Part shown: positions 48,196 through 60,662 of the stretch, piece after piece
Position numbering within the stretch: the stretch's first letter is position 1
Layout of the letters: each line of letters opens with the position of its first letter
Origin: Candidatus Sulfotelmatobacter sp.
GTDB lineage: Bacteria > Acidobacteriota > Terriglobia > Terriglobales > Acidobacteriaceae
NCBI GenBank assembly: GCA_036844925.1
Contig: DAIUEW010000020.1
Location: 4,716 to 68,715 of the forward strand
Direction: 5' to 3'
DNA length: 64,000 nucleotides
Notes under the pieces: generated by a model
The model's database searches: none
Told to the model about the DNA's origin: nothing
What the model saw: only the letters and a program-made list of their open reading frames with translations
Translations under genes and position numbers: made by a program

Positions 48196-48266
48196 ACACT
48201 AGATTACCACAGGGCAATGCGTTCTATGCGTGGTTTTGGGGGGTAGTGTGGCCGCATGGCCGAAGA

Positions 48267-48310
48267 GTCGAGCTTCGCTCGACGGACAGCCGAGGGCGGC
48301 TGTCCCCACA
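48267..48310 (+). repeat. Double-hairpin REP, family D
   Basis: gtcgagc-ttc-gctcgac followed by ggacagccg-aggg-cggctgtcc-ccaca. Confidence 0.85.
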
Positions 48311-48380
48311 CAGGTATCTCGTGGGACAGGACACTAATCCAGCTAGAGGTCGGCTATGCTCAAAGAGCATCTTAAACTCC

Positions 48381-50177
48381 ATGCGAAAGCTTGCTGAAAG
48401 TGCCGAGGCGATTGCCGCCACCCCCAAGAGGTTGCTGAAGACGGGGATCGTGGCGGACTACCTGAAATCGCGCACTCCCGATGAGGCGGCGGTGTCGGCG
48501 GTGTTGCTCTCCGGACGAGCATTTCCTGCATGGGAGGAGACAACTTTGCAGGTGGGCGGCGCGCTATTGTGGCGCGTGGTGGCGGAGCTTTCTGGAAAGA
48601 GTGAAGCGGAACTTACAGCTACCTATCGGAAGCACGGAGATTTGGGTGCGGTGGCCGGGCAGGTTCTGGAACAGCGAGCTGGACAAGGGTTGGGAGTGGC
48701 GGAGGTAAGCGGAGTTTTTCGTGAGATCGCAGCGGCACGCGGGCCGGCAGCAAAGGCGGCTCTGGTCCGCGATTTGCTGGGGCGAGCGACTCCGCTCGAA
48801 GCCAAGTACATCGTGAAGATCATGACTGGCGATTTGCGGATTGGGCTGAAAGAGAGCCTGGTCGAGGAAGCGATCGCCAGGGCATGCGGCGGCACGCTTG
48901 CGGGGGCGTTGGAGAAAGTGCAGCGAGCGAATATGTTGCTCGGGGATATAGGCGAGACGCTGAGGCTGGCTGTCGAAGGCAAGCTCGGCGAAGCTAAGAT
49001 GCGGATGTTTCATCCGCTGGGATTCATGCTTGCAAGTCCGATTGAGTCGGCTGAAGAAGGGCTGAGTTATTTCGCAGAGGCTGCAGTAGAGGACAAGTAC
49101 GACGGGATTCGAGCGCAGGCGCACGTGGCTGACGGCGAGGTGAAGCTTTTTTCGCGCACTCGGGATGAGATCACAGAGTCGTTTCCGGAGTTGCCTGACG
49201 CGCTGGCGGGACTGCCACAGGATGCGATTCTCGATGGCGAGATTGTGGCCTGGGAGTACCCGGCGAATGTTGAGGATACGCTGAAAGTGGTTGACGAGCC
49301 GCTCACGGACACGGGAGAAGCGAAGGCGATGAATCTTGGGCGGGCTCGGCCCTTCAGCGTGCTGCAGCAGCGGCTGGGGCGTAAGAAAATCAGTGAGCGC
49401 ATGTTGCGGGAGGTTCCTGTCGCTTATCTCGTGTTCGACGTTTTATATTCGGGCGGGCAGTTGCTGATTGATAGTCCGCTGCGGGAGCGTGCTCGGGTAC
49501 TGGATGAATTGCTGAGAGCGGAGGGAAAAATCATTCACCACAGAGGCACAGAGACACAGAGAAAGACGGGGCAAGGGAAGCTAATCTTTGAGGAACAGAG
49601 CCGGGAGAATAACCTGGCGGCGGGAGTTATCCGCGCGCCGGTGTTTCGCGCGAACTCGTCCGAGGAATTGGAAGAACTGTTTGCGGCCGCGCAGGAGAGA
49701 GGCAACGAAGGATTGATGATCAAAGACCTCGAGTCGGCTTACATGCCAGGGAAGCGAGGGAAGTCGTGGCTCAAGATGAAGCGCGAACTGGCCACTCTCG
49801 ACGTGGTCGTAACAGCGGTCGAATACGGTCACGGCAAGCGCGTGGGCGTGCTCAGCGACTACACGTTTGCAGTATGGGATAAGGATAAAGAACGGTTGGT
49901 GAATATCGGCAAGGCATATTCGGGCCTGACGGACGTTGAGATTGCGGAAATGACGCAGTGGTTTCTGGAGCACACGGTTGAAGATAACGGTTTTCGGCGG
50001 ACGGTTGAGCCGAAGGTGGTGCTCGAAGTGGCTTTCAACAATATGATGCAGTCAGAGCGGCACGAGAGTGGATACGCGCTGCGCTTTCCAAGGATCGTGC
50101 GGTTAAGGCCGGATAAGACGGCGGATGAGGCGGATACGATTGAACGGGTGCGGGAGATTTATGAACAGCAGAACTAA
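48381..50177 (+). CDS. ATP-dependent DNA ligase (three-domain, Cdc9/LigB-like)
   Basis: Motif I EDKYDGIR, III LVFDVLY, IV EGLMIKD, V SWLKMKRE, then an OB domain. Start at the ATG at 48381; the ORF extension to 48246 translates a REP. Confidence 0.85.
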   Translation: MRKLAESAEAIAATPKRLLKTGIVADYLKSRTPDEAAVSAVLLSGRAFPAWEETTLQVGGALLWRVVAELSGKSEAELTATYRKHGDLGAVAGQVLEQRAGQGLGVAEVSGVFREIAAARGPAAKAALVRDLLGRATPLEAKYIVKIMTGDLRIGLKESLVEEAIARACGGTLAGALEKVQRANMLLGDIGETLRLAVEGKLGEAKMRMFHPLGFMLASPIESAEEGLSYFAEAAVEDKYDGIRAQAHVADGEVKLFSRTRDEITESFPELPDALAGLPQDAILDGEIVAWEYPANVEDTLKVVDEPLTDTGEAKAMNLGRARPFSVLQQRLGRKKISERMLREVPVAYLVFDVLYSGGQLLIDSPLRERARVLDELLRAEGKIIHHRGTETQRKTGQGKLIFEEQSRENNLAAGVIRAPVFRANSSEELEELFAAAQERGNEGLMIKDLESAYMPGKRGKSWLKMKRELATLDVVVTAVEYGHGKRVGVLSDYTFAVWDKDKERLVNIGKAYSGLTDVEIAEMTQWFLEHTVEDNGFRRTVEPKVVLEVAFNNMMQSERHESGYALRFPRIVRLRPDKTADEADTIERVREIYEQQN

Positions 50178-50182
50178 ATCTG

Positions 50183-50211
50183 TTGACACTGCCTCTTCCT
50201 GTGCCTAGCCT
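50183..50211 (+). promoter_or_regulatory. Candidate promoter for a leaderless parDE transcript
   Basis: TTGACA (50183-50188), 17-nt spacer, TAGCCT (50206-50211), 7 nt, ATG at 50219. No SD. Confidence 0.35.
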
Positions 50212-50218
50212 TGTAAGC

Positions 50219-50443
50219 ATGGACGTACCCCTCAACCCCGAGTTGCAGGCAAAGCTTAGACGGTTGGCGGAGCAGCAGGGCCGAGCTAGTACGGCTCTTA
50301 TCGTTGAGGCTGTCGAGCGTATGGTGAACTACGACGAGTGGTTCCTGCGTGAGGTAGACAAGGGCCTCGCTGCTGCTGACCGTGGCGAGCTCGTGGATCA
50401 CTCGGATGTCAGGAAAATGATTGACAAGAGGTATCCGGGCTAA
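50219..50443 (+). CDS. parD: Type II antitoxin, ParD/RHH-like
   Basis: 74 aa. N-terminal ribbon-helix-helix-like LNPELQAKLRRLAEQQGRASTALIVEAVERM. The stop overlaps the toxin ATG (TAATG). Confidence 0.65.
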   Translation: MDVPLNPELQAKLRRLAEQQGRASTALIVEAVERMVNYDEWFLREVDKGLAAADRGELVDHSDVRKMIDKRYPG

Positions 50444-50724
50444 TGATTATTCGCTGGACGGATGCTGCCGTCCGCGACTTCACTCACATTTGCGATTACA
50501 TTGACGAACACCGCAGCAGTGCCGCGGCACGCCGCGTCGCCCTTTCCATCCACCGCCAGATTGACCTGTTGGCGGAGTTCCCCGAATACGGAAGAACAGG
50601 TCGAAAGCTGGACACGCGCGAACTGGTCTTTACTGGCTTGCCGTATCTCGCGGTCTATCGCATTCGTGAAGATGCGGTAGAGATCGTCCGAATTCTTCAT
50701 GGCGCACAAGACTGGCCGGAGTAA
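50443..50724 (+). CDS. parE: Type II toxin, RelE/ParE family
   Basis: 93 aa. IRWTDAAVRDF...I..YI, ELVFTGLPYLAVYRI..D.VEIVRILHGAQ is typical of ParE. Confidence 0.8.
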   Translation: MIIRWTDAAVRDFTHICDYIDEHRSSAAARRVALSIHRQIDLLAEFPEYGRTGRKLDTRELVFTGLPYLAVYRIREDAVEIVRILHGAQDWPE

Positions 50725-50742: not shown

Positions 50743-51684
50743 TCAGTGGCTGTGATGATGATGCCCTTCGCTTTCGCCCACTGGTATCACGCATCCATGA
50801 GCCACTTCGCATTCCACGTGCTCGAACTGGATAGTGGTGTGGTCGATGTGGAAGCTGTGGTGCAGGCGGTCTTTCACGTCGCGCAGGATGCGCTCGCTGA
50901 CCGAGGGCGGGATGTCGGCAATCGAGATGTGGCAGGAGAGTGCTCGAGTCTCCGAGCCGATGCTCCAGCAGTGAAGATCATGGACATCATTCACTCCATC
51001 GATGGAGCGGATCGTGTTTTCGACGAGTTCGAGTTTCACGCCACGCGGGGTGCCTTCGAGCAGAATGTTAAGGGTCTCGCGCACGATGCCGAAGCCTGAC
51101 CAGAGGATCAGCGCGCCGATTCCGAAAGAGAGCGCGGAGTCGATCCAGGTATCGCCCGTGACCAGAATGGCCCATCCTCCGGCGATCACGGCGGCGGTGG
51201 AAAGAGTGTCGCCCACTTCATGCAGCAATGCGCTGCGGATGTTCACGTCGTTTCCAGAACTCTGGCCGGAGCGGTACAGCAGCCAGGCAATCACTCCGTT
51301 CATCGCCACGCCCGCCGCGGCGACCCACATCATCACTGAGGCCTGCACATGCTGGGGATGCTGCAGGCGGTGAAACGCCTCGTAGAAGATAAAGAAGGAG
51401 ACGGCGACCAACGATACGGCATTCACCAGCGCGGCCAGCACTCCGGCGCGATGGTAGCCGTAGGTCTTCGTCGAACTGGCGGGACGCGATTGCAAATAGA
51501 CCGCCACCAGCGAGAGCAAAAGCGCTAAGAAGTCGGAGAGGTTGTGTCCGGCTTCGGAGAGCAGGGCCAGCGAATGAGCGCGGATTCCTGCGACCACCAG
51601 CAGCACGATGTAGGCCAGGGTCACGCCGAGCGAGATCTTGAGGACTCGCTTGGGACCACCCCCGCCATGAACGTGAACGTGCAT
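50743..51684 (-). CDS. Cation diffusion facilitator (CzcD/ZitB-like) transporter
   Basis: HxxxD pairs in TM2/TM5 (HNLSDFLAL, HEVGDTLST). His-rich N and C termini (HVHVHGGGG, GHHHHSH). An alternative TTG start lies at 51720. Confidence 0.85.
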   Translation of the reverse strand: MHVHVHGGGGPKRVLKISLGVTLAYIVLLVVAGIRAHSLALLSEAGHNLSDFLALLLSLVAVYLQSRPASSTKTYGYHRAGVLAALVNAVSLVAVSFFIFYEAFHRLQHPQHVQASVMMWVAAAGVAMNGVIAWLLYRSGQSSGNDVNIRSALLHEVGDTLSTAAVIAGGWAILVTGDTWIDSALSFGIGALILWSGFGIVRETLNILLEGTPRGVKLELVENTIRSIDGVNDVHDLHCWSIGSETRALSCHISIADIPPSVSERILRDVKDRLHHSFHIDHTTIQFEHVECEVAHGCVIPVGESEGHHHHSH

Positions 51685-51797
51685 TCTATAAGTGTACGGG
51701 CGAGGGGAGACGGGCTTCAAGCGGCGGCCGGAATCAGTTTGTGTCTGACGTTTAAGACACTACCCTGGAATCAATTTGTGATCCAGGCGAAGAAAGC

Positions 51798-51842
51798 GTC
51801 GAGCTTTGCTCGATGGACAGCCGGGGGCGGCTGTCCCCACAT
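51798..51842 (+). repeat. Double-hairpin REP, family D
   Basis: tcgagc-ttt-gctcga followed by ggacagccg-gggg-cggctgtcc-ccacat. Confidence 0.85.
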
Positions 51843-51867: not shown

Positions 51868-54627
51868 TTAGCGCTTGAAGAGGCTCTGCAGGTAGCGGTC
51901 GTTATAGAGGGAGGTTGAGCTCTGCACGAACTCCAGAACACGGTACATGATATCCCGCGAGTCGCGACTCATCTCCTTGAATTGCACTGCTACTCCCGAG
52001 CCGGGATGGAGTCGAGCGATGGTGCCCTCCGCTGTCAAAGCACCGTCATCCATGGAAAAGATCACTTTGACATTCGAGGCGGGAGATAAGATCGCGCTGG
52101 TTTCAACGTAGCAGCCGCCGAGACTGATATCAATTAGATTTCCGAAGATGGGGTCGCCAGCATCGGAGTGCAGCTCCACCGTGAGCCGGCATTTCATGCG
52201 GGTGTGCAGCCGCTGATCTTTCTCCGTAGGTTGCTTCTGCTTCTCGACATACATGCGCCGGTCGGCTTCGGTGAGGAGCTGCTCGGCATCATTGCCATCG
52301 TCTGGAGAAACGGCGACTCCCACGCTCAGCGAGAGGATCTGTTCGCCGCAAACCTCAAAGCCCGCCTGCATGGCAAGGGGGCGAATCTGGTCAACTTTCT
52401 TGGTGGCGGCATCGGCCGGCAGTCCCGGAGCGATGACTACAAATTCGTCTCCACCCATGCGGGCCACGTAGTCGTATTCGCGACATGTGTCTTTCAGGGC
52501 CTGAGCGAACAAACGCAGAACACGATTTCCCTCGAGGTGGCCGAAGCGATCGTTGATTTTCTTGAAGCCGTTCATGTCGCAGACCATCAGGGTGAGGGAG
52601 ATTTTGTCGCGTTTGCAGCGGGCTAGCTCGCGGTCGAGTTGCAAAAAGAGCGACCGGGCATTGGGCAGACCGGTAAGATAATCGGTAGTAGCGGAGCTTT
52701 CCGCCTGCTCGTATTTGAGAGCATTTTCGATGGCGAGAGCCATCTTTCCGCTCACGGCCAGGAGCAGGCGAAGATGATCGGAGGTAAAAGCATCGCGCTC
52801 GGAGCGGTAGAGGGCGAGAACACCGATCACGCCCGAGATGCCCTCCAGAGGAACAGCCAGGGCGGACCGAAGTGTGCTGAACTTGTCGGGATCGTTCAGA
52901 TAGCCAGGCTCAACTGAAGGATTACCGTTGATAATGGGTTTCTTATTCTGTGCCACCCAACCCGACAGACCGTCGCCCACAGGAATTCGCAAAGAGGAAA
53001 AAAGCCGATAGTTATCGCCATTTACATACTCCGGCATCAACACATCTTCGCGCAGGATGTAGATGGCGATCGCATCGTAGGGAACCATGGGCTTGAGCTT
53101 CACCGAGAAAACCGAGAGCGTCTCGCCCAAGCTCAGGGAGGCACCCAGGTTCTGGCTCAACTCAAACAGAGATTGCGCCTCCTGGCGAGCCGCAGCGATC
53201 GACGAGAGAAAAGTTGCTTCCCTGCCGGGCGCGTCCGAGACAGACGCATTTTCGTATCCCGCAGATGGCGCTGGTCCGCGCGTGACCTTGAGTTCGGCAG
53301 GCAACGCCGGGTCGCCAGCCTGGCCTGATTGGGCCAAGGCCAGATTTTCCAGGGTTCGATAACAGCGCTGGAGAACACTCACGACTTTCGGATCAAACGA
53401 CTTGCCCGACTCTTCAGCCAGCCTCTTCATAACCTCATCGAGCGGCATCGCCCGGCGATACTGACGGTCGGAAGCCAGAGCGTCGAGAAAATCGACCGCG
53501 GAAAGCACGCGCGCGCCAATCGGAATCTCTTCGCCTTTCAGGCCAAAGGGATAACCAGAGCCATCCCACTTTTCATGATGGGCTCGCACGATCGGCACAA
53601 CCGGATAGGGGAAGCGGACTCGTTCCAGAATCTCCGCGCCGACAACGGTGTGAATCTTCATCTTCTCGAACTCTTCCGGGGTTAGCCGGCCGGGCTTGGC
53701 GATGATGTGTTCAGGCACGGCGAGTTTACCGATGTCGTGCAGCAGCGCCGCGGCGTGAAGAGCATCCAATTCGGTGCCCTTAAGGCCCAATTCTTTGGCT
53801 ACTTCAATGGCGTAGATGCGAACCCGCTGCAAGTGAGCGTGGGTAGTCTGGTCTTTGGCCTCAATGGCGAGGGCGAGGGCTTCAATGGTTCGGAGATGCA
53901 GGTTGGCAATCTCTTCGACGTGCCGCTTCTGATCCTCCAACTTTCCCAGATACAGGCGGTAGGAGCGGTAGATGATATACATTGCCGGGACGAAGAGGAG
54001 AGACGACTCCCAATTGAATTCCTGGTTAAACCAACCAATCGCGCCTGCGATTCCTGCGCCCACCAGATAGTAGGGGAAAGACCACAAATAGCAGTCCACC
54101 AGAATCCGCCGAAGAGGCCTGCCTTCACTGAAAGAAATCACGGCGCCGATGCACCCTGCGTTCGCGATGAAGTAGGTCGAAGCCGCAAGACATAGGATCA
54201 GTGGACGACTGGCGATGAGTTCGTTGGCCAGACCATTGTGATACACAACGTAAGCCAGAGCGGTGGAGAGGGCGCCGGCACAAACGTTGAACGTCAACTG
54301 GATTGCGTTCGGGCGGTTGGGATACAAAGTCTGGGCCAACATGGAGATCGCTCCCAGAGTCATTGCCTCGGAGTAGCTCAGCTCCGCGATGCCTACCAAG
54401 ATAAACAGGAAGTTGACCGAAAGCGTGCCCGTGATACCGGGCAGGGTGACGCGCAGCCGCGACGCCAAGACCGCCACGCCCAGATAACAGATGAACTGTG
54501 CGATGTTTTTGCTACTCTGATGGATCGCCGCCTGAAGCAGCGAAGCCGTGCCGATCGTGATCACCAGGCCGATGAAAGCCTTGGCGCCGATGGGCAAACC
54601 CTTCCACGACTGTTCTTGAGTGGACAT
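51868..54627 (-). CDS. Membrane-anchored HD-GYP / GAF / GGDEF / PilZ multidomain c-di-GMP signalling protein
   Basis: 919 aa. About 7 N-terminal TM segments. HD-GYP (LLHDIGKLAVPE, HHEKWDGSGYP). GAF-like segment. GGDEF with I-site (REYD-YVARM-GGDEF). C-terminal PilZ motifs (RLHTR = RxxxR, DISLGG = DxSxxG). Confidence 0.85.
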   Translation of the reverse strand: MSTQEQSWKGLPIGAKAFIGLVITIGTASLLQAAIHQSSKNIAQFICYLGVAVLASRLRVTLPGITGTLSVNFLFILVGIAELSYSEAMTLGAISMLAQTLYPNRPNAIQLTFNVCAGALSTALAYVVYHNGLANELIASRPLILCLAASTYFIANAGCIGAVISFSEGRPLRRILVDCYLWSFPYYLVGAGIAGAIGWFNQEFNWESSLLFVPAMYIIYRSYRLYLGKLEDQKRHVEEIANLHLRTIEALALAIEAKDQTTHAHLQRVRIYAIEVAKELGLKGTELDALHAAALLHDIGKLAVPEHIIAKPGRLTPEEFEKMKIHTVVGAEILERVRFPYPVVPIVRAHHEKWDGSGYPFGLKGEEIPIGARVLSAVDFLDALASDRQYRRAMPLDEVMKRLAEESGKSFDPKVVSVLQRCYRTLENLALAQSGQAGDPALPAELKVTRGPAPSAGYENASVSDAPGREATFLSSIAAARQEAQSLFELSQNLGASLSLGETLSVFSVKLKPMVPYDAIAIYILREDVLMPEYVNGDNYRLFSSLRIPVGDGLSGWVAQNKKPIINGNPSVEPGYLNDPDKFSTLRSALAVPLEGISGVIGVLALYRSERDAFTSDHLRLLLAVSGKMALAIENALKYEQAESSATTDYLTGLPNARSLFLQLDRELARCKRDKISLTLMVCDMNGFKKINDRFGHLEGNRVLRLFAQALKDTCREYDYVARMGGDEFVVIAPGLPADAATKKVDQIRPLAMQAGFEVCGEQILSLSVGVAVSPDDGNDAEQLLTEADRRMYVEKQKQPTEKDQRLHTRMKCRLTVELHSDAGDPIFGNLIDISLGGCYVETSAILSPASNVKVIFSMDDGALTAEGTIARLHPGSGVAVQFKEMSRDSRDIMYRVLEFVQSSTSLYNDRYLQSLFKR

Positions 54628-54877
54628 CGTCTAGGACTTGATGCGGTCCCTGGGGGCTGGCGCAGGAACACCAACAGCAAGGATAACGGGCTAACAGGTT
54701 TAGTAACAATGATTTATAGACCGCCGCGCAAACTTCGGTAACGCTGTGGAAGTACTTTGGGGAAGCGGACTTGTGGGGGTCATCGTGATGAAAAGACTTC
54801 GGAGAGTTTGGTGGATCGCAGGAGTAGAATGCCGAATTAGAACGTAACCTTTCGAACGTAACCTGAGGAGGCCCGCG

Positions 54878-55198
54878 ATGAAAGCCTCAGCCTTGTCTCT
54901 TGTGTTGTTGTTATCGTCCGCGGCGCTGGCGCAGGGCCGCCCAATTCCGCCTGGGGTCCTACAGGGCAACCGGGCTGTGTTGCAAGGTGAGAAGGACGTC
55001 CCGCCCCCGCTGAATCAGCGAGCGTCGGTCGATCCTGCGAAACTCAGGCACGATGCTGACGAGCTGGCGAGTTTGGCGCAGTCCGTGCCCTCGGCTATCG
55101 ACCAGACGACAAAGGGTGTCCTGCAGAAGGACCTGAGTGAAAGGCTGAAACGAATTGAAAAGCTGGCGAAACAACTGCGCTCACAAATTTCTCAATAG
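54878..55198 (+). CDS. Small secreted hypothetical protein
   Basis: 106 aa. GAGGAGG RBS. Signal peptide MKASALSLVLLLSSAALAQG. Helical charged C-terminus. Confidence 0.45.
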   Translation: MKASALSLVLLLSSAALAQGRPIPPGVLQGNRAVLQGEKDVPPPLNQRASVDPAKLRHDADELASLAQSVPSAIDQTTKGVLQKDLSERLKRIEKLAKQLRSQISQ

Positions 55199-55361: not shown

Positions 55362-58300
55362 TTAGAAGGCGATGCGCAGTCCGAATTCGAACTGGCGCGG
55401 AGCGCCCAGTGCGTAGGTTCCCGACTGGAAGCTTGCCCGGAATGGTACAAGGTTTGCGCCAGGCGTTACGCCGCCGATCGAAGATGCCGATAGCGTCCCA
55501 GGCACAGCGCCTCCAGGGCTCAGCGTTCCCGAGGTTCCTCCCGGCAAGTTGCCCGGCAGGAACGAGTTCGAGAAGTTGAAGATGTTGAAGATGCTGGCGC
55601 TCGGCTCAATAGTCAAGCGCTCCTTGACCTTAATTGGCCATGCTGCCTTCAGGTCGAACGACTTGAGCCAGGGGAAGCCAACCGCACCCGGAGCTACGTT
55701 GGCTAACGAAGGCATCACCCAGCCCATGGCCGTCATGTCAGCACTGCTCATAACGCCATTGGTCACTAACTGGCTGCCAGCAGGCGTCAGGCTGCCTGCA
55801 AAGGTGCTGTTGTAGTGGTTGATCAGGTTCTGCATGTTGTGGACGGTGACGCCACGCTGGAATTCACCGAGATTCGTGCCCGGTACGGGCATGCCTCCGG
55901 GCTGGTTCGAACCAAAGCCGGACCCCAACCAATCGGTGGCGTAGATTTCTCCACCACTGGTCAACTCAGGCAGAGAAATGTTGTCGGGTAGCGGACTGTA
56001 GAAGTGCCCGATCAGGCTCAGCCGCGTGAAAAGAGGCAGGTCGAAGGTTCCGCCGAATGAAAATTGGTGGGTCCGATCCAGAGCGTTCGGTCCAGTAAAC
56101 CGGAGCGGTTCGTCATTGTCCAACGGTAGGTTGACGAAGTCCTGATCCTGCACCTGGCTCGTGAACTTCGAGAGAGAGTAGGAGAATTGGAAGTTGGAGG
56201 ACTTCACCCCAGGAATAGGGTGCTGTACTTGTTGCTTCAAGCTGATTTGCAATCCGCTGTACACGGAACGACCGATCGGCTCAAGCGTGTCCAGGGTTCC
56301 GAGCGAGCCGTTGCCGGCAGGCCCAATGGCAGTATTGACGAAGTTGGAACCGTTTGGAGTAATGCCCGGAAACGCGCATGTGGCGCACGGGGCGCCACCC
56401 GCAACCGCATTGTTGGAATCCAGCCCGGCTGCGGAGTATGCCGATTGGGCTCCCGCCTGCCCTAAAGCCGTGATCATACATGTGACCTGAGACCCAGGAC
56501 CGAGGCAGCCATTCGCGACCTGCGCCGCGTCGCGCGCAGCAATAGCGTTGGCAAGATTGAAGGAGCGCGCCGATCCGCTGTGGTTCTGATCCGTGACGAT
56601 CAGATAATGTTCCCCGATGTTGCGAATGTAATCGGCGGTCAGCACTGTTCCGGGACGAAATTCGTGCTGGATGCCGAGATTCATCTGCCATGAACGGGGA
56701 GTGCGATAGTTCGGGGCGAAGATATCAAATCCGTTAGCGTTTGAGGCGTTCATGGTCGTACCAATAAAATTGGGGTTGGGTTGCAGCCCAATGTTTGCAG
56801 CGGCGGCGGACCTGAAGGCGGTGCCCAAATTCAAGATTTGCTGGCCTACGGTAGAGATCGTGCCACCGCAAAAGTTGGGAGTCACACTTCCGCTCCCGTT
56901 CGATGTCCCAGCTCCTCCCGCCACGGGCCCTGCGGGAATAGTGGTGGGCCAAGCGAATGACTGAGCTACGCCGCCGAAGCACACGAACGGAGTGTCCGAG
57001 AAGATGCCTTTGGGAATTCGACCCGGGCTATCGAACAACACGTTATTCCAGATCGAGTTCTCAAAGAATAAGCCGCCGCCACCACGGATAACTGTCTTTC
57101 CGGTGCCGGATACATCCCAGGCAAAGCCGACTTGCGGGCCGAAGTCGTCGGCAGGAGTCCGCACCCGATCACCGAGTCCCGGAGCCCATGAATTGAGAAC
57201 AGGCAACGGACCCAAGTCACTGTCGACGCGTCCGGTGTCGTGCACATAATGCAAGCCGAGCGAGAGCGTAAACCTGGGTACTATCTTCCACCCATCCCCA
57301 CCATAAAGCTCGAGGCGGTTATCAGGCCCCAAGCCGCCACCAGGGAAGTTGAAAGAGGATTTGGCGGTCGAAAAACCAATACCGTTGCCGAGTTGAACGT
57401 AGCTCGCCGGGTAGGTGGTTGGATCTGCTGGATTGGAGGTGGTTGGCACGTTGGTCGTGCCCACCTGGGGGAAAGTAACGAAGGCTGCCAAGCCGCCGCC
57501 CTGAATATGATTAAAAGCGGCCCCGTAGCGAAATACGTGCTTGCCGACAACCTTGCTGCCATCGTACTTAGCCTGGTGATCGCTCTGAATGGTTTGCTGA
57601 GGCGCGAGAAAGTTGGGTCCGCCGCAATAGGCACCGCCGCCGCTAAACACGCAATCGCCGGCAACGGGAGCACCAATGTTAATGCCCAATCCGGGGAATG
57701 GATTATCCGGGCCGGCGGGGATGCTTCCTGTGCCATCTCCGATTCCGTTGCGGAACTTGAGATATTCGAAGCGGATGCTGTGTGAGAACGAGCCGGTGTT
57801 GAAATCGATACCGGCTACATGGGTCGCAGTGTGGTCTTCATTCTCAAATCCCTGCGTGGAGCTGGCCGAACCATACGGGCGAACCCCATGGTTCTGGAAG
57901 AAGTTAAAGCGGTAGAACGCTCGCGTATTGCCCTTGACGTTCCAGTCTACACGTTCATCCGTTAGCAATTCGCGGTAAGGATCCACCAGAGTGGTGTTCA
58001 ATACGGCAAAAGGACCACCAAAGGGCTCAGCCCCGGTTAGATTTTGTTTCGTGTGTTCGCCGTCCAGGAACCAGAAGAGCTTGTCCTTAATGAACGCTCC
58101 TCCCAAATTGCCGCCGTATTGCTCACGTTGAAACGGTGGCGCGGTAGGACCAGGCAGCGCTGCGGCCAGCTGATTGCCACGAAACAATCCGAATGCTTCG
58201 CCATGAATCGCGTTGCTACCGGAGCGGGTCGTAACGTTCACAGCGCCGGAGGAGGTCAGTTCGGTCGAGAGGTCCAGCGACGACTGCGAAAGCTGGAATT

Positions 58301-58985
58301 CCTGAATCGCGCTGGCAGGAATGTTCTGAGTGGTCGTGCCTACGGTTTCGTCGCTGACGTCGACACCATCCACCTCAATTCTTGCCGTGCGGCCGAACCT
58401 GCCCTGGAAAGAGATCGAGGAGAAACCGTTCTTGGTGGGATCGAAAGTGCTGCCCTCTTGAATCTGAACGCCCGGCTCGAGCTGAGCGAGATCGAGGAAG
58501 TTACGGCCGTTAACAGGGAGATTTTCGATCTGTTCCAGACCGATGGTGCCTTGCACCGTGGCTTGCTCGGTATTGACGCCAACCACCGCCCCTTGAACCT
58601 CAATGACCTGGCTTTCCAGCCCGACTGCCAGCTTTGGGCTGACAGTTGCCGTATTGCCAACTTGCACGGTAACGGGTTCCTCTACTGTCTTGAAGCCTTT
58701 GGCTTCAGCGCGCACTACATAATCACCGGGCTGAATCGGCCCTGAGGAGTAAGTGCCAGCCGAGGAAGCTGTGAGGTGGAGGGCCCCCGCTGTCGCTTTG
58801 TTGGTGATTGTTACCCTGGCATTGGCGACCACCGCACCGGATTGATCGGTCACGGTGCCCTGAACACTGCCGGTTCCAACCGTGGATTGGGCCAGCGTGA
58901 AGGTTGAGACCAGCAGGAACATTAGAGCCAGGAGCGCACTGAAGCGCGCGCAAACATGGCGGGGAGAGCTAAGGTTCGACATCAT
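55362..58985 (-). CDS. TonB-dependent outer-membrane receptor with carboxypeptidase-regulatory-like domain
   Basis: Signal peptide ...LALMFLLVSTFTLAQS. GTVTDQSGAVVANARVTITN...GTYSSGPIQPGDY. Plug NGRNFLDLAQLEPGV. Barrel ends GLRIAF. Start at the ATG-ATG after GGAAGGTGG; the ORF extends to 59024. Confidence 0.85.
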   Translation of the reverse strand: MMSNLSSPRHVCARFSALLALMFLLVSTFTLAQSTVGTGSVQGTVTDQSGAVVANARVTITNKATAGALHLTASSAGTYSSGPIQPGDYVVRAEAKGFKTVEEPVTVQVGNTATVSPKLAVGLESQVIEVQGAVVGVNTEQATVQGTIGLEQIENLPVNGRNFLDLAQLEPGVQIQEGSTFDPTKNGFSSISFQGRFGRTARIEVDGVDVSDETVGTTTQNIPASAIQEFQLSQSSLDLSTELTSSGAVNVTTRSGSNAIHGEAFGLFRGNQLAAALPGPTAPPFQREQYGGNLGGAFIKDKLFWFLDGEHTKQNLTGAEPFGGPFAVLNTTLVDPYRELLTDERVDWNVKGNTRAFYRFNFFQNHGVRPYGSASSTQGFENEDHTATHVAGIDFNTGSFSHSIRFEYLKFRNGIGDGTGSIPAGPDNPFPGLGINIGAPVAGDCVFSGGGAYCGGPNFLAPQQTIQSDHQAKYDGSKVVGKHVFRYGAAFNHIQGGGLAAFVTFPQVGTTNVPTTSNPADPTTYPASYVQLGNGIGFSTAKSSFNFPGGGLGPDNRLELYGGDGWKIVPRFTLSLGLHYVHDTGRVDSDLGPLPVLNSWAPGLGDRVRTPADDFGPQVGFAWDVSGTGKTVIRGGGGLFFENSIWNNVLFDSPGRIPKGIFSDTPFVCFGGVAQSFAWPTTIPAGPVAGGAGTSNGSGSVTPNFCGGTISTVGQQILNLGTAFRSAAAANIGLQPNPNFIGTTMNASNANGFDIFAPNYRTPRSWQMNLGIQHEFRPGTVLTADYIRNIGEHYLIVTDQNHSGSARSFNLANAIAARDAAQVANGCLGPGSQVTCMITALGQAGAQSAYSAAGLDSNNAVAGGAPCATCAFPGITPNGSNFVNTAIGPAGNGSLGTLDTLEPIGRSVYSGLQISLKQQVQHPIPGVKSSNFQFSYSLSKFTSQVQDQDFVNLPLDNDEPLRFTGPNALDRTHQFSFGGTFDLPLFTRLSLIGHFYSPLPDNISLPELTSGGEIYATDWLGSGFGSNQPGGMPVPGTNLGEFQRGVTVHNMQNLINHYNSTFAGSLTPAGSQLVTNGVMSSADMTAMGWVMPSLANVAPGAVGFPWLKSFDLKAAWPIKVKERLTIEPSASIFNIFNFSNSFLPGNLPGGTSGTLSPGGAVPGTLSASSIGGVTPGANLVPFRASFQSGTYALGAPRQFEFGLRIAF

Positions 58986-59431
58986 CCACCTTCCTTTCGG
59001 AAACTTCACAGAGTCGCTTTGCATAAGTTTTGGAAACTTTCTCTTTCAGAAAATTCGTTCTCGTTCAGAATTCTTTCGTCAGGATTTAGGAACCGCGAAA
59101 TTGACGATTGCCGCTCGGGAGGCCGGAGTTGGAATATCATTCTCCGCGCTTAACATTACCTTGCATAACAAATGTTTCAGAGCACACTCACACGAGCCTA
59201 GGACTGGGATTCAGATCAATCAGAGCAATCTGCTCGCCAGTGTGAACGTTGACGCGAAACGCCAATGCATCTATATGTTTCTTAATATACTTACTCCTTT
59301 TTTGTCCTGAGTCGATTCGAGCCGCGGGAGGGCTTATACACGGAATTCGATCCAAGAAACAGTATTACTAATTCCGTAAAATGGATGAAAACAATTCAAC
59401 AGATTTCAACATCTGTGCGCTCGAGCGATTG

Positions 59432-60585: not shown

Positions 60586-60662
60586 TGGTGGCGGCGCGTG
60601 GACTCGAACCACGGACCTACGGATTATGAGACCGTCGCTCTAACCACCTGAGCTACGCCGCC
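60586..60662 (-). tRNA. tRNA-Met (anticodon CAT), elongator-type; could be lysidine-modified tRNA-Ile2
   Basis: The reverse complement folds as a cloverleaf: GGCGGCG-TA-GCTC-AGGTGGTTA-GAGC-G-ACGGT-CTCATAA-TCCGT-AGGTC-CGTGG-TTCGAGT-CCACG-CGCCGCC-ACCA. G1-C72 is paired, so it is not an initiator. CCA is encoded. Confidence 0.9.

Follow-up and report, generated by a model that had tools for sequence, protein, structure and literature searches.

The window analysed here is a stretch of 64,000 nucleotides from Candidatus Sulfotelmatobacter sp. (GenBank assembly GCA_036844925.1, contig DAIUEW010000020.1). Its minus strand carries, at 51868..54627, an open reading frame (ORF) with an ATG start and a stop codon at 51868-51870. 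The predicted product is a 919-residue protein in which a polytopic membrane region is followed by HD-GYP, GAF, GGDEF and PilZ domains, a combination that may allow one chain to make, degrade and sense cyclic di-GMP (c-di-GMP). The gene had been singled out in an earlier reading of the window made from the letters alone, referred to here as the sequence-only reading. From the amino to the carboxyl end of the protein, its features are as follows.

51868..54627, minus strand: the whole gene, encoding a 919-residue MASE9-like/HD-GYP/GAF/GGDEF/PilZ protein (ORF list, Pfam, NCBIfam and 80 species-level orthologues).
53938..54627, minus strand: polytopic membrane region, MASE9-like, residues 1-230, with 7-8 helices (Pfam, hydropathy, model helices).
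53383..53871, minus strand: predicted HD-GYP phosphodiesterase domain of the binuclear type, residues 253-415 (Pfam HD_5, E 2e-36; alignment to PmGH).
52723..53187, minus strand: GAF domain, residues 481-635 (Pfam GAF_2, E 5e-13, and GAF, E 1e-9; distant PDB matches).
52231..52692, minus strand: GGDEF domain with an RxxD inhibitory site (I-site), residues 646-799 (Pfam GGDEF, E 1e-39; alignment to five solved cyclases).
52657-52659, minus strand: cross-dimer site A657, an Ala at the position of GacA Y304 and IsPadC R537.
52525-52527, minus strand: specificity site N701, an Asn at the position of PleD D344 and GacA S348.
51871..52215, minus strand: canonical PilZ domain and long C-terminal helix, residues 805-919 (Pfam, AlphaFold2, Foldseek).

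The sequence-only reading had placed the HD-GYP, GAF, GGDEF and PilZ domains on a single chain behind about seven transmembrane segments, and profile searches with hidden Markov models bore this out. All four cytoplasmic domains exceeded the curated Pfam cut-offs, and the GGDEF and HDIG matches in NCBIfam agreed with Pfam; the NCBIfam search gave no equivalog-level match for the 919-residue protein. What had been called a GAF-like segment is covered by the GAF, GAF_2 and GAF_3 profiles at residues 501-635, and the nearest solved GAF relatives in a PDB search (PtsP, Nlh1, 5w10 and DevS) are distant. Hydropathy peaks and a low-confidence full-length AlphaFold2 model place 7-8 helices within residues 13-230. 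The model helices span residues 13-35, 42-55, 72-82, 85-100, 108-129, 141-168, 172-199 and 209-257, and the last membrane helix continues directly into a long juxtamembrane helix ahead of the HD-GYP domain. The MASE9 class of membrane sensors is marked by eight hydrophobic segments, among them a short hairpin. On residues 65-177 of our protein the MASE9 profile scored 20.8 bits, slightly under its cut-off of 24.3, and it matched 19 of 58 homologues (best E 8e-10). Because the query falls just below the cut-off while these 19 homologues match, the N-terminal region is best named MASE9-like. The full-length model was rejected as a guide to domain packing: its predicted local distance difference test score (pLDDT) was 50.7 and its predicted template modelling score (pTM) 0.29, and the underlying alignment was shallow, with members at least 84% identical.

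A scan of one genome per species returned at least 586 relatives of the protein. The best 80 of these made up our species-level set; all are full-length, including PilZ, and share 68-89% identity with the query, and 79 of them were used for conservation counts. Nearly all are labelled Acidobacteriota/Terriglobia, and a few records carry other bin labels. Among the 79 orthologues, mean identity is 85-89% for HD-GYP, GAF and GGDEF, with HD-GYP the most conserved domain (89%) and GAF at 88%, and the juxtamembrane linker before HD-GYP (residues about 222-252) is 90% conserved. At a finer scale, the best 120 clusters at 90% identity all measure about 920 residues, are at least 84% identical and have the same Pfam set; they come from Candidatus Sulfotelmatobacter, Acidoferrum and Acidobacteriaceae metagenome-assembled genomes, and their source names say merely 'diguanylate cyclase'. 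As judged from these alignments, the domains and their catalytic and binding residues are under strong purifying selection.

The wider family was searched among 1.84 billion representatives at 50% identity, of which the best 150 matches were considered. Most are 780-870 residues long and align to residues 13-799 at 35-56% identity, so that they have the same architecture without PilZ. When Pfam was run on 58 sampled family members, HD_5, GAF and GGDEF were found in 58/58 and PilZ only in the query. The view of the sequence-only reading that GGDEF is uncommonly fused to HD-GYP does not hold for this family, in which it is both a published architecture and that of most of the best 150 clusters. 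MASE9-HD-GYP-GAF-GGDEF is explicitly listed in the HD-GYP survey of Galperin & Chou (bioRxiv 10.1101/2021.11.05.467447), where GGDEF is a regular HD-GYP partner. Fusions of PilZ with GGDEF, EAL and HD-GYP have been on record since PilZ was first described in 2006, and GGDEF was among the common PilZ partners in a survey of 28,223 PilZ proteins. Our clade shares with the published proteins the order membrane domain, HD-GYP, GAF, GGDEF and differs from them in adding a canonical PilZ domain after GGDEF. Only this clade-specific tail is new here; the PilZ-tailed protein is a lineage-specific extension of a described family, conserved in soil Acidobacteria.

A few further clusters (P0147, P0203 and P0229) also have the PilZ tail. 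In a 718-residue sister clade (P0375-P0403; for example L084:4001-6157, plus strand), an HD-GYP-GAF-SGDEF-PilZ unit stands behind a single N-terminal hydrophobic helix, the last of the series and the only one kept. In L084 this gene begins only 316 bp from a divergent sigma-70-like gene, and since that gap leaves no room for it, the MASE9 domain is truly absent from the clade. That the four-domain cytoplasmic unit is kept without MASE9 implies that the unit itself is selected.

The HD-GYP domain, which had been described as apparently catalytic, has the residues expected of an active phosphodiesterase. Its best solved relative is PmGH from Persephonella marina (PDB 4mcw/4mdz; 4mcw matched at E 5e-44). 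The motifs HDIGK (297-301) and HHEKWDGSGYP (350-360) are present, and a residue alignment to 4mcw accounts for every one of the seven binuclear metal ligands (H265, H297, D298, H326, H350, H351 and D379) as well as K301, E352 and G358-Y359-P360. The guanine-reading Rxx(K/R) motif is represented by R388-Q-Y-R391, aligned with PmGH R314/K317. The HD pair, HHExxDGxGYP, D305 and the R314/K317-type motif of PmGH are thus all matched, and HD, HHExxDGxGYP and RQYR are kept in 79/79 orthologues.

The two proteins differ at the third metal ligand. In PmGH this is E185, which completes a trinuclear iron site, and hydrolysis proceeds to GMP. Here the equivalent acidic residue is absent and replaced by T261 (Thr in 76/79 orthologues, Ser in 3/79). 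By the published split between the two types, T261 predicts a binuclear site with pGpG as the likely end product. When the HD-GYP domain was searched alone, the top PDB match was V-cGAP3 (5z7c), which suggested an enzyme for cyclic GMP-AMP (cGAMP). We ruled this out from the signature position: cGAMP-selective HD-GYP enzymes carry RxxQ/N, RxxR being the c-di-GMP type, and the residue here is R391.

The sequence-only reading had also credited the GGDEF domain with an intact active site and a canonical RxxD I-site five residues upstream. The second claim holds: REYD at 716-719 is followed by the five-residue spacer YVARM and then by GGDEF at 725-729, and both R and D of the I-site are present in 79/79 orthologues. 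The first holds for the motif and for the metal- and phosphate-binding residues (D684, K689, N692, R723, D727, E728 and K796), the first four of which correspond to PleD D327, K332, N335 and R366. Across the 58-member family alignment D684, N692, R723 and F729 never vary and K689, G726, D727 and E728 are at least 90% conserved, and within the orthologues PNAR and GGDEF are kept in 79/79.

The claim of an intact active site thus holds only in part, since two positions, overlooked in the sequence-only reading, are non-canonical. All five solved cyclases that we aligned have G-D where our protein has G-N (N701, kept in 78/79 orthologues); the residue at this position, D344 in PleD and S348 in GacA, is the one that pairs with the base at its Watson-Crick face, and substrate specificity depends on it. 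The second is A657, which we assigned by spacing: residues 692, 701 and 727, and 657 (701-44), are spaced as 339, 348, 374 and 304 in GacA. The cross-dimer Arg that is expected here is presumably PleD R300, by our own count along the PleD sequence. Arg occupies this position in 94% of predicted cyclases (R537 in IsPadC; GacA has Y304). GTP specificity has been shown to depend on this pair of positions, with Ser348/Asp on the Watson-Crick side and Tyr304/Arg reaching from across the dimer (PMC6456294).

Neither substitution is peculiar to our clade. Across the family the specificity position is Asn in 51 and Asp in 46 of about 116 scorable members, and the cross-dimer position is Ala, Ser or Thr nearly throughout, with Arg in only 3 of about 130. 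Of the 80 members whose [GAS]GDEF motif is intact, 44 are N-type and 36 D-type, and at least 12 interchanges between the two were counted on a neighbour-joining tree. The N/D residue was tested for co-variation with three other features, RxxR of HD-GYP, the I-site and the position of E185, and none was found; RxxR occurs in 36/44 N-type and 30/36 D-type members, and the I-site in 38/44 and 32/36. Frequent interconversion without a compensating change suggests that in this family Asn does the job of Asp, and for that reason we retain c-di-GMP as the most likely product. In one genome, an 883-residue paralogue with MASE9-like, HD-GYP, GAF and GGDEF domains, Asp-type and without PilZ (L036:11275-13926, plus strand), lies about 2.5 kb downstream of a PilZ-tailed Asn-type gene.

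The same two positions admit another reading of the protein, as mainly a phosphodiesterase. The Asn701/Ala657 GGDEF domain would then be a weak or inactive cyclase that binds GTP, or c-di-GMP at its I-site, and regulates HD-GYP, with PilZ adding substrate-dependent activation. A precedent is Caulobacter PdeA, in which a degenerate GGDEF domain reportedly acts as the regulatory module of an EAL domain. Replacement of the guanine-specifying Asp throughout almost the whole clade and the near absence of the cross-dimer Arg from the family fit such a role, as does the standing of HD-GYP as the best conserved domain. Several family members moreover have a plainly degenerate GGDEF motif beside a perfect HD-GYP, and relatives of about 650 residues stop after GAF and lack GGDEF altogether. 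However, degenerate sensor GGDEF domains usually lose the GGDEF motif, the I-site and the residues that bind metal and phosphate, all of which are 100% conserved in our clade, and at least 12 N/D switches without any other active-site change suggest that Asn is compatible with the role of Asp. We regard this alternative as rather unlikely.

A further possibility is that the specificity of the cyclase has changed, making it an Asn-type relative of the Hypr enzymes that converts ATP or another purine nucleoside triphosphate to cGAMP, c-di-AMP or another dinucleotide while HD-GYP and PilZ still read c-di-GMP. With the Hypr GGDEF domains of GacA and Bd0367 our protein shares a non-Asp specificity residue, a non-Arg cross-dimer residue, GGDEF rather than GGEEF (as the Goldilocks model requires) and an intact I-site. 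Both positions known to govern GTP specificity are non-canonical (PMC6456294), Ala is one of the cross-dimer residues that have been reported for Hypr enzymes making cGAMP, and an Asn amide could in principle pair with adenine or guanine. Hypr enzymes, however, are defined by Ser/Thr at the specificity position, and Asn stands there in our protein; they are also soluble and linked to REC or GAF, without HD-GYP or PilZ fusion. Our literature search found no Asn-type GGDEF enzyme among the characterised cyclase classes. The c-di-GMP-type RxxR is found in N-type and D-type relatives alike, the PilZ and I-site motifs appear to be of the canonical c-di-GMP type, and repeated N/D switching among close relatives argues against a fixed change of product. 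We therefore consider altered specificity very unlikely. The corollary, that Asn701/Ala657 domains are a natural third cyclase class beside the Asp-type (c-di-GMP) and the Ser/Thr-type (Hypr), with cross-talk between messenger pools on a single chain, is equally a long shot.

At the C-terminus, the sequence-only reading had seen a PilZ domain with both c-di-GMP-binding motifs, and profile and predicted structure agree with it. The Pfam profile covers residues 805-896 (E 4e-12; 46.7 bits against a cut-off of 22.5). RLHTR at 806-810 and DISLGG at 833-838, with a gap of 22 residues, fit RxxxR and the refined [D/N]hSxxG pattern. A PDB sequence search with the tail alone gave chance matches only, and structure prediction with Foldseek was used instead. 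An AlphaFold2 model of residues 795-919, built with 52 homologous tails, reached a pLDDT of 83 and has six strands and a long helix; its top 43 PDB matches in Foldseek are all PilZ domains, including those of Alg44, BcsA, PA0012, VCA0042, MapZ, MrkH and YcgR. While the whole domain averages only 64% identity among the orthologues, each motif residue is found in 77-79 of 79, which argues for specific selection on the PilZ binding residues.

Our PilZ domain resembles those of the fused receptors BcsA, Alg44, YcgR/PlzD and Tlp1 in its RxxxR and [D/N]hSxxG motifs, its six-stranded barrel with a C-terminal helix and the location of RxxxR in the linker to the preceding domain, where it begins about 7-9 residues past the last GGDEF helix. 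Template modelling scores against fused PilZ receptors were 0.54-0.68, normalised by query length. The difference lies in the partner: here PilZ is joined to the enzyme predicted to make its ligand, and the enzyme predicted to destroy it is on the same chain.

PilZ might instead be an output or adaptor domain: loaded with locally made c-di-GMP, it would act together with its long helix to recruit or control a second protein in a form of local signalling, for example of the chemotaxis or envelope machinery. Product inhibition is already supplied by the I-site, and close homologues all share Y908, N909, R911 and Y912 in the C-terminal helix beyond the PilZ core. Among the structural matches is PDB 5xly, and PilZ proteins of its type (MapZ) bind partners in the loaded state; a convergent CheB gene lies downstream in 13/80 loci. 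Against this, long C-terminal helices are general to PilZ domains, and a PilZ domain in a fusion protein usually acts on the chain that carries it. Nor is any neighbour shared across the clade; the commonest, a CDF transporter gene, is present in 36-37 of 80 loci. An adaptor role seems to us quite unlikely.

Our favoured reading, to which as a whole series of inferences we give a probability of roughly 55%, is a bifunctional c-di-GMP enzyme that is anchored in the membrane and senses its own product through the I-site and PilZ. The MASE9-like domain would pass an envelope or intramembrane signal to HD-GYP via the highly conserved juxtamembrane helix (about 222-252). HD-GYP, with its predicted binuclear site, would most likely open c-di-GMP to pGpG, and GAF would control how active the GGDEF cyclase is by setting its geometry. 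Two sites in cis, the RxxD I-site (716-719) and PilZ, would sense the product. In YcgR- and PlzD-type proteins, ligand binding repositions the PilZ barrel. By analogy, and because RxxxR sits in the short GGDEF-PilZ linker, we propose that c-di-GMP binding clamps the barrel onto this linker and repositions it relative to the catalytic domains, and that this movement could shift the balance of synthesis and hydrolysis. Negative feedback through PilZ would make the protein a homeostat and positive feedback a switch; it may play either role, homeostat or toggle, as the sequence-only reading had suggested. In bifunctional GGDEF-EAL enzymes such as ScrC and MSDGC-1, synthesis and degradation likewise share one polypeptide and sensory domains choose the direction. 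Our protein resembles them in its predicted pairing of both activities, and differs in having HD-GYP rather than EAL, the hydrolase N-terminal to the cyclase and a receptor domain appended.

Several points weigh against a bifunctional, self-sensing enzyme. With N701 in place of the guanine-pairing Asp and A657 in place of the cross-dimer Arg, diguanylate cyclase activity is not assured. A purely inhibitory PilZ would be redundant beside the existing I-site, and no contact between PilZ and the enzymatic domains is visible in the poor full-length model. The only MASE9 protein that has been studied, HdgA, has HD-GYP alone (Galperin & Chou, bioRxiv 10.1101/2021.11.05.467447), and our literature search found no paper characterising a MASE9-HD-GYP-GAF-GGDEF-PilZ protein or describing this combination. 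Nor do the 80 loci contain a neighbour conserved clade-wide that would indicate an output.

If the favoured reading is right, the protein is a compact natural second-messenger circuit on one polypeptide, with a writer, an eraser, and two product sensors (I-site and PilZ), all governed by a membrane sensor, and would offer a clean model for how feedback in cis sets c-di-GMP levels. A single orthologue of it has been kept in many uncultured Acidobacteria of peat and soil, in which signalling is almost unstudied. Its parts and most of their combinations have already been catalogued, so that the advance would be incremental rather than conceptual. The one feature able to raise the importance of the protein is its non-canonical pair of GGDEF specificity residues: the exchange of Asn for Asp is a natural experiment on substrate recognition by GGDEF domains, with N-type and D-type relatives side by side.

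Around the gene, the window contains the following features.

54878-55198, plus strand: small secreted ORF of 106 residues, beginning like a signal peptide and ending in a charged, helical C-terminus.
51790..51836, minus strand: tandem hairpins after the stop codon (sequence read and consensus scan).
50743-51720, minus strand: CDF-family cation-efflux gene, His-rich at the C-terminus of its product, directly downstream on the same strand.
50183-50724, plus strand: ParD-like/ParE toxin-antitoxin pair (ParE_toxin, E 1e-19).
48246-50177, plus strand: ATP-dependent DNA ligase with N, M and C domains (housekeeping context).
55362-59024, minus strand: 1220-residue protein with CarboxypepD_reg and an OMP beta-barrel, TonB-dependent-receptor-like and typical of Acidobacteria, upstream.
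60589-60662, minus strand: tRNA gene (Rfam, 68.8 bits; housekeeping context).

The gene looks monocistronic and without a fixed genomic partner. The sequence-only reading had paired it with the divergent small secreted protein. That ORF is a genuine gene, with 83% amino-acid identity to its counterpart in L083 and changes mostly at third codon positions, but it is confined to near-identical strains whose main proteins are 94-98% identical; tblastn found the ORF in 0/80 species-level loci, and we rejected it as a partner. It has no Pfam match.

The CDF gene, the most frequent neighbour, is treated as local synteny rather than as part of an operon: it is adjacent in only 36-37 of the 80 loci, and the tandem hairpins lie between the two genes. 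These consist of GGACAGCCG-CCCC-CGGCTGTCC, then TCGAGC-AAA-GCTCGA, then CGCTTTCTTC, and are terminator-like by pattern match only. Past the CDF gene come the ATP-dependent DNA ligase, DUF1385 and RF-1. The ParD-like/ParE pair, which sits between the CDF gene and the ligase gene, is present in only 4/80 related loci and is for that reason probably a mobile insertion. Other species have different flanks, with ilvB/N-like genes upstream and the convergent CheB gene downstream. In about 10 loci a 152-residue ORF beside the gene looked PilZ-like by eye; it had no Pfam match and was dropped.

Upstream, a search for a riboswitch such as GEMM gave no Rfam match at the gathering threshold or at E up to 1, and the intergenic region 54628-54877 matched no Rfam family and no sigma-70-like promoter. 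An alignment of the three closest relatives shows identical blocks within this region, GGGCTAACAGGTTTAGTAACAATGATTTAT and CAAACTTCGGTAACGC for example, next to sequence that varies. Farther upstream, the 1220-residue CarboxypepD_reg/OMP protein is split into two called genes in a close relative (L081).

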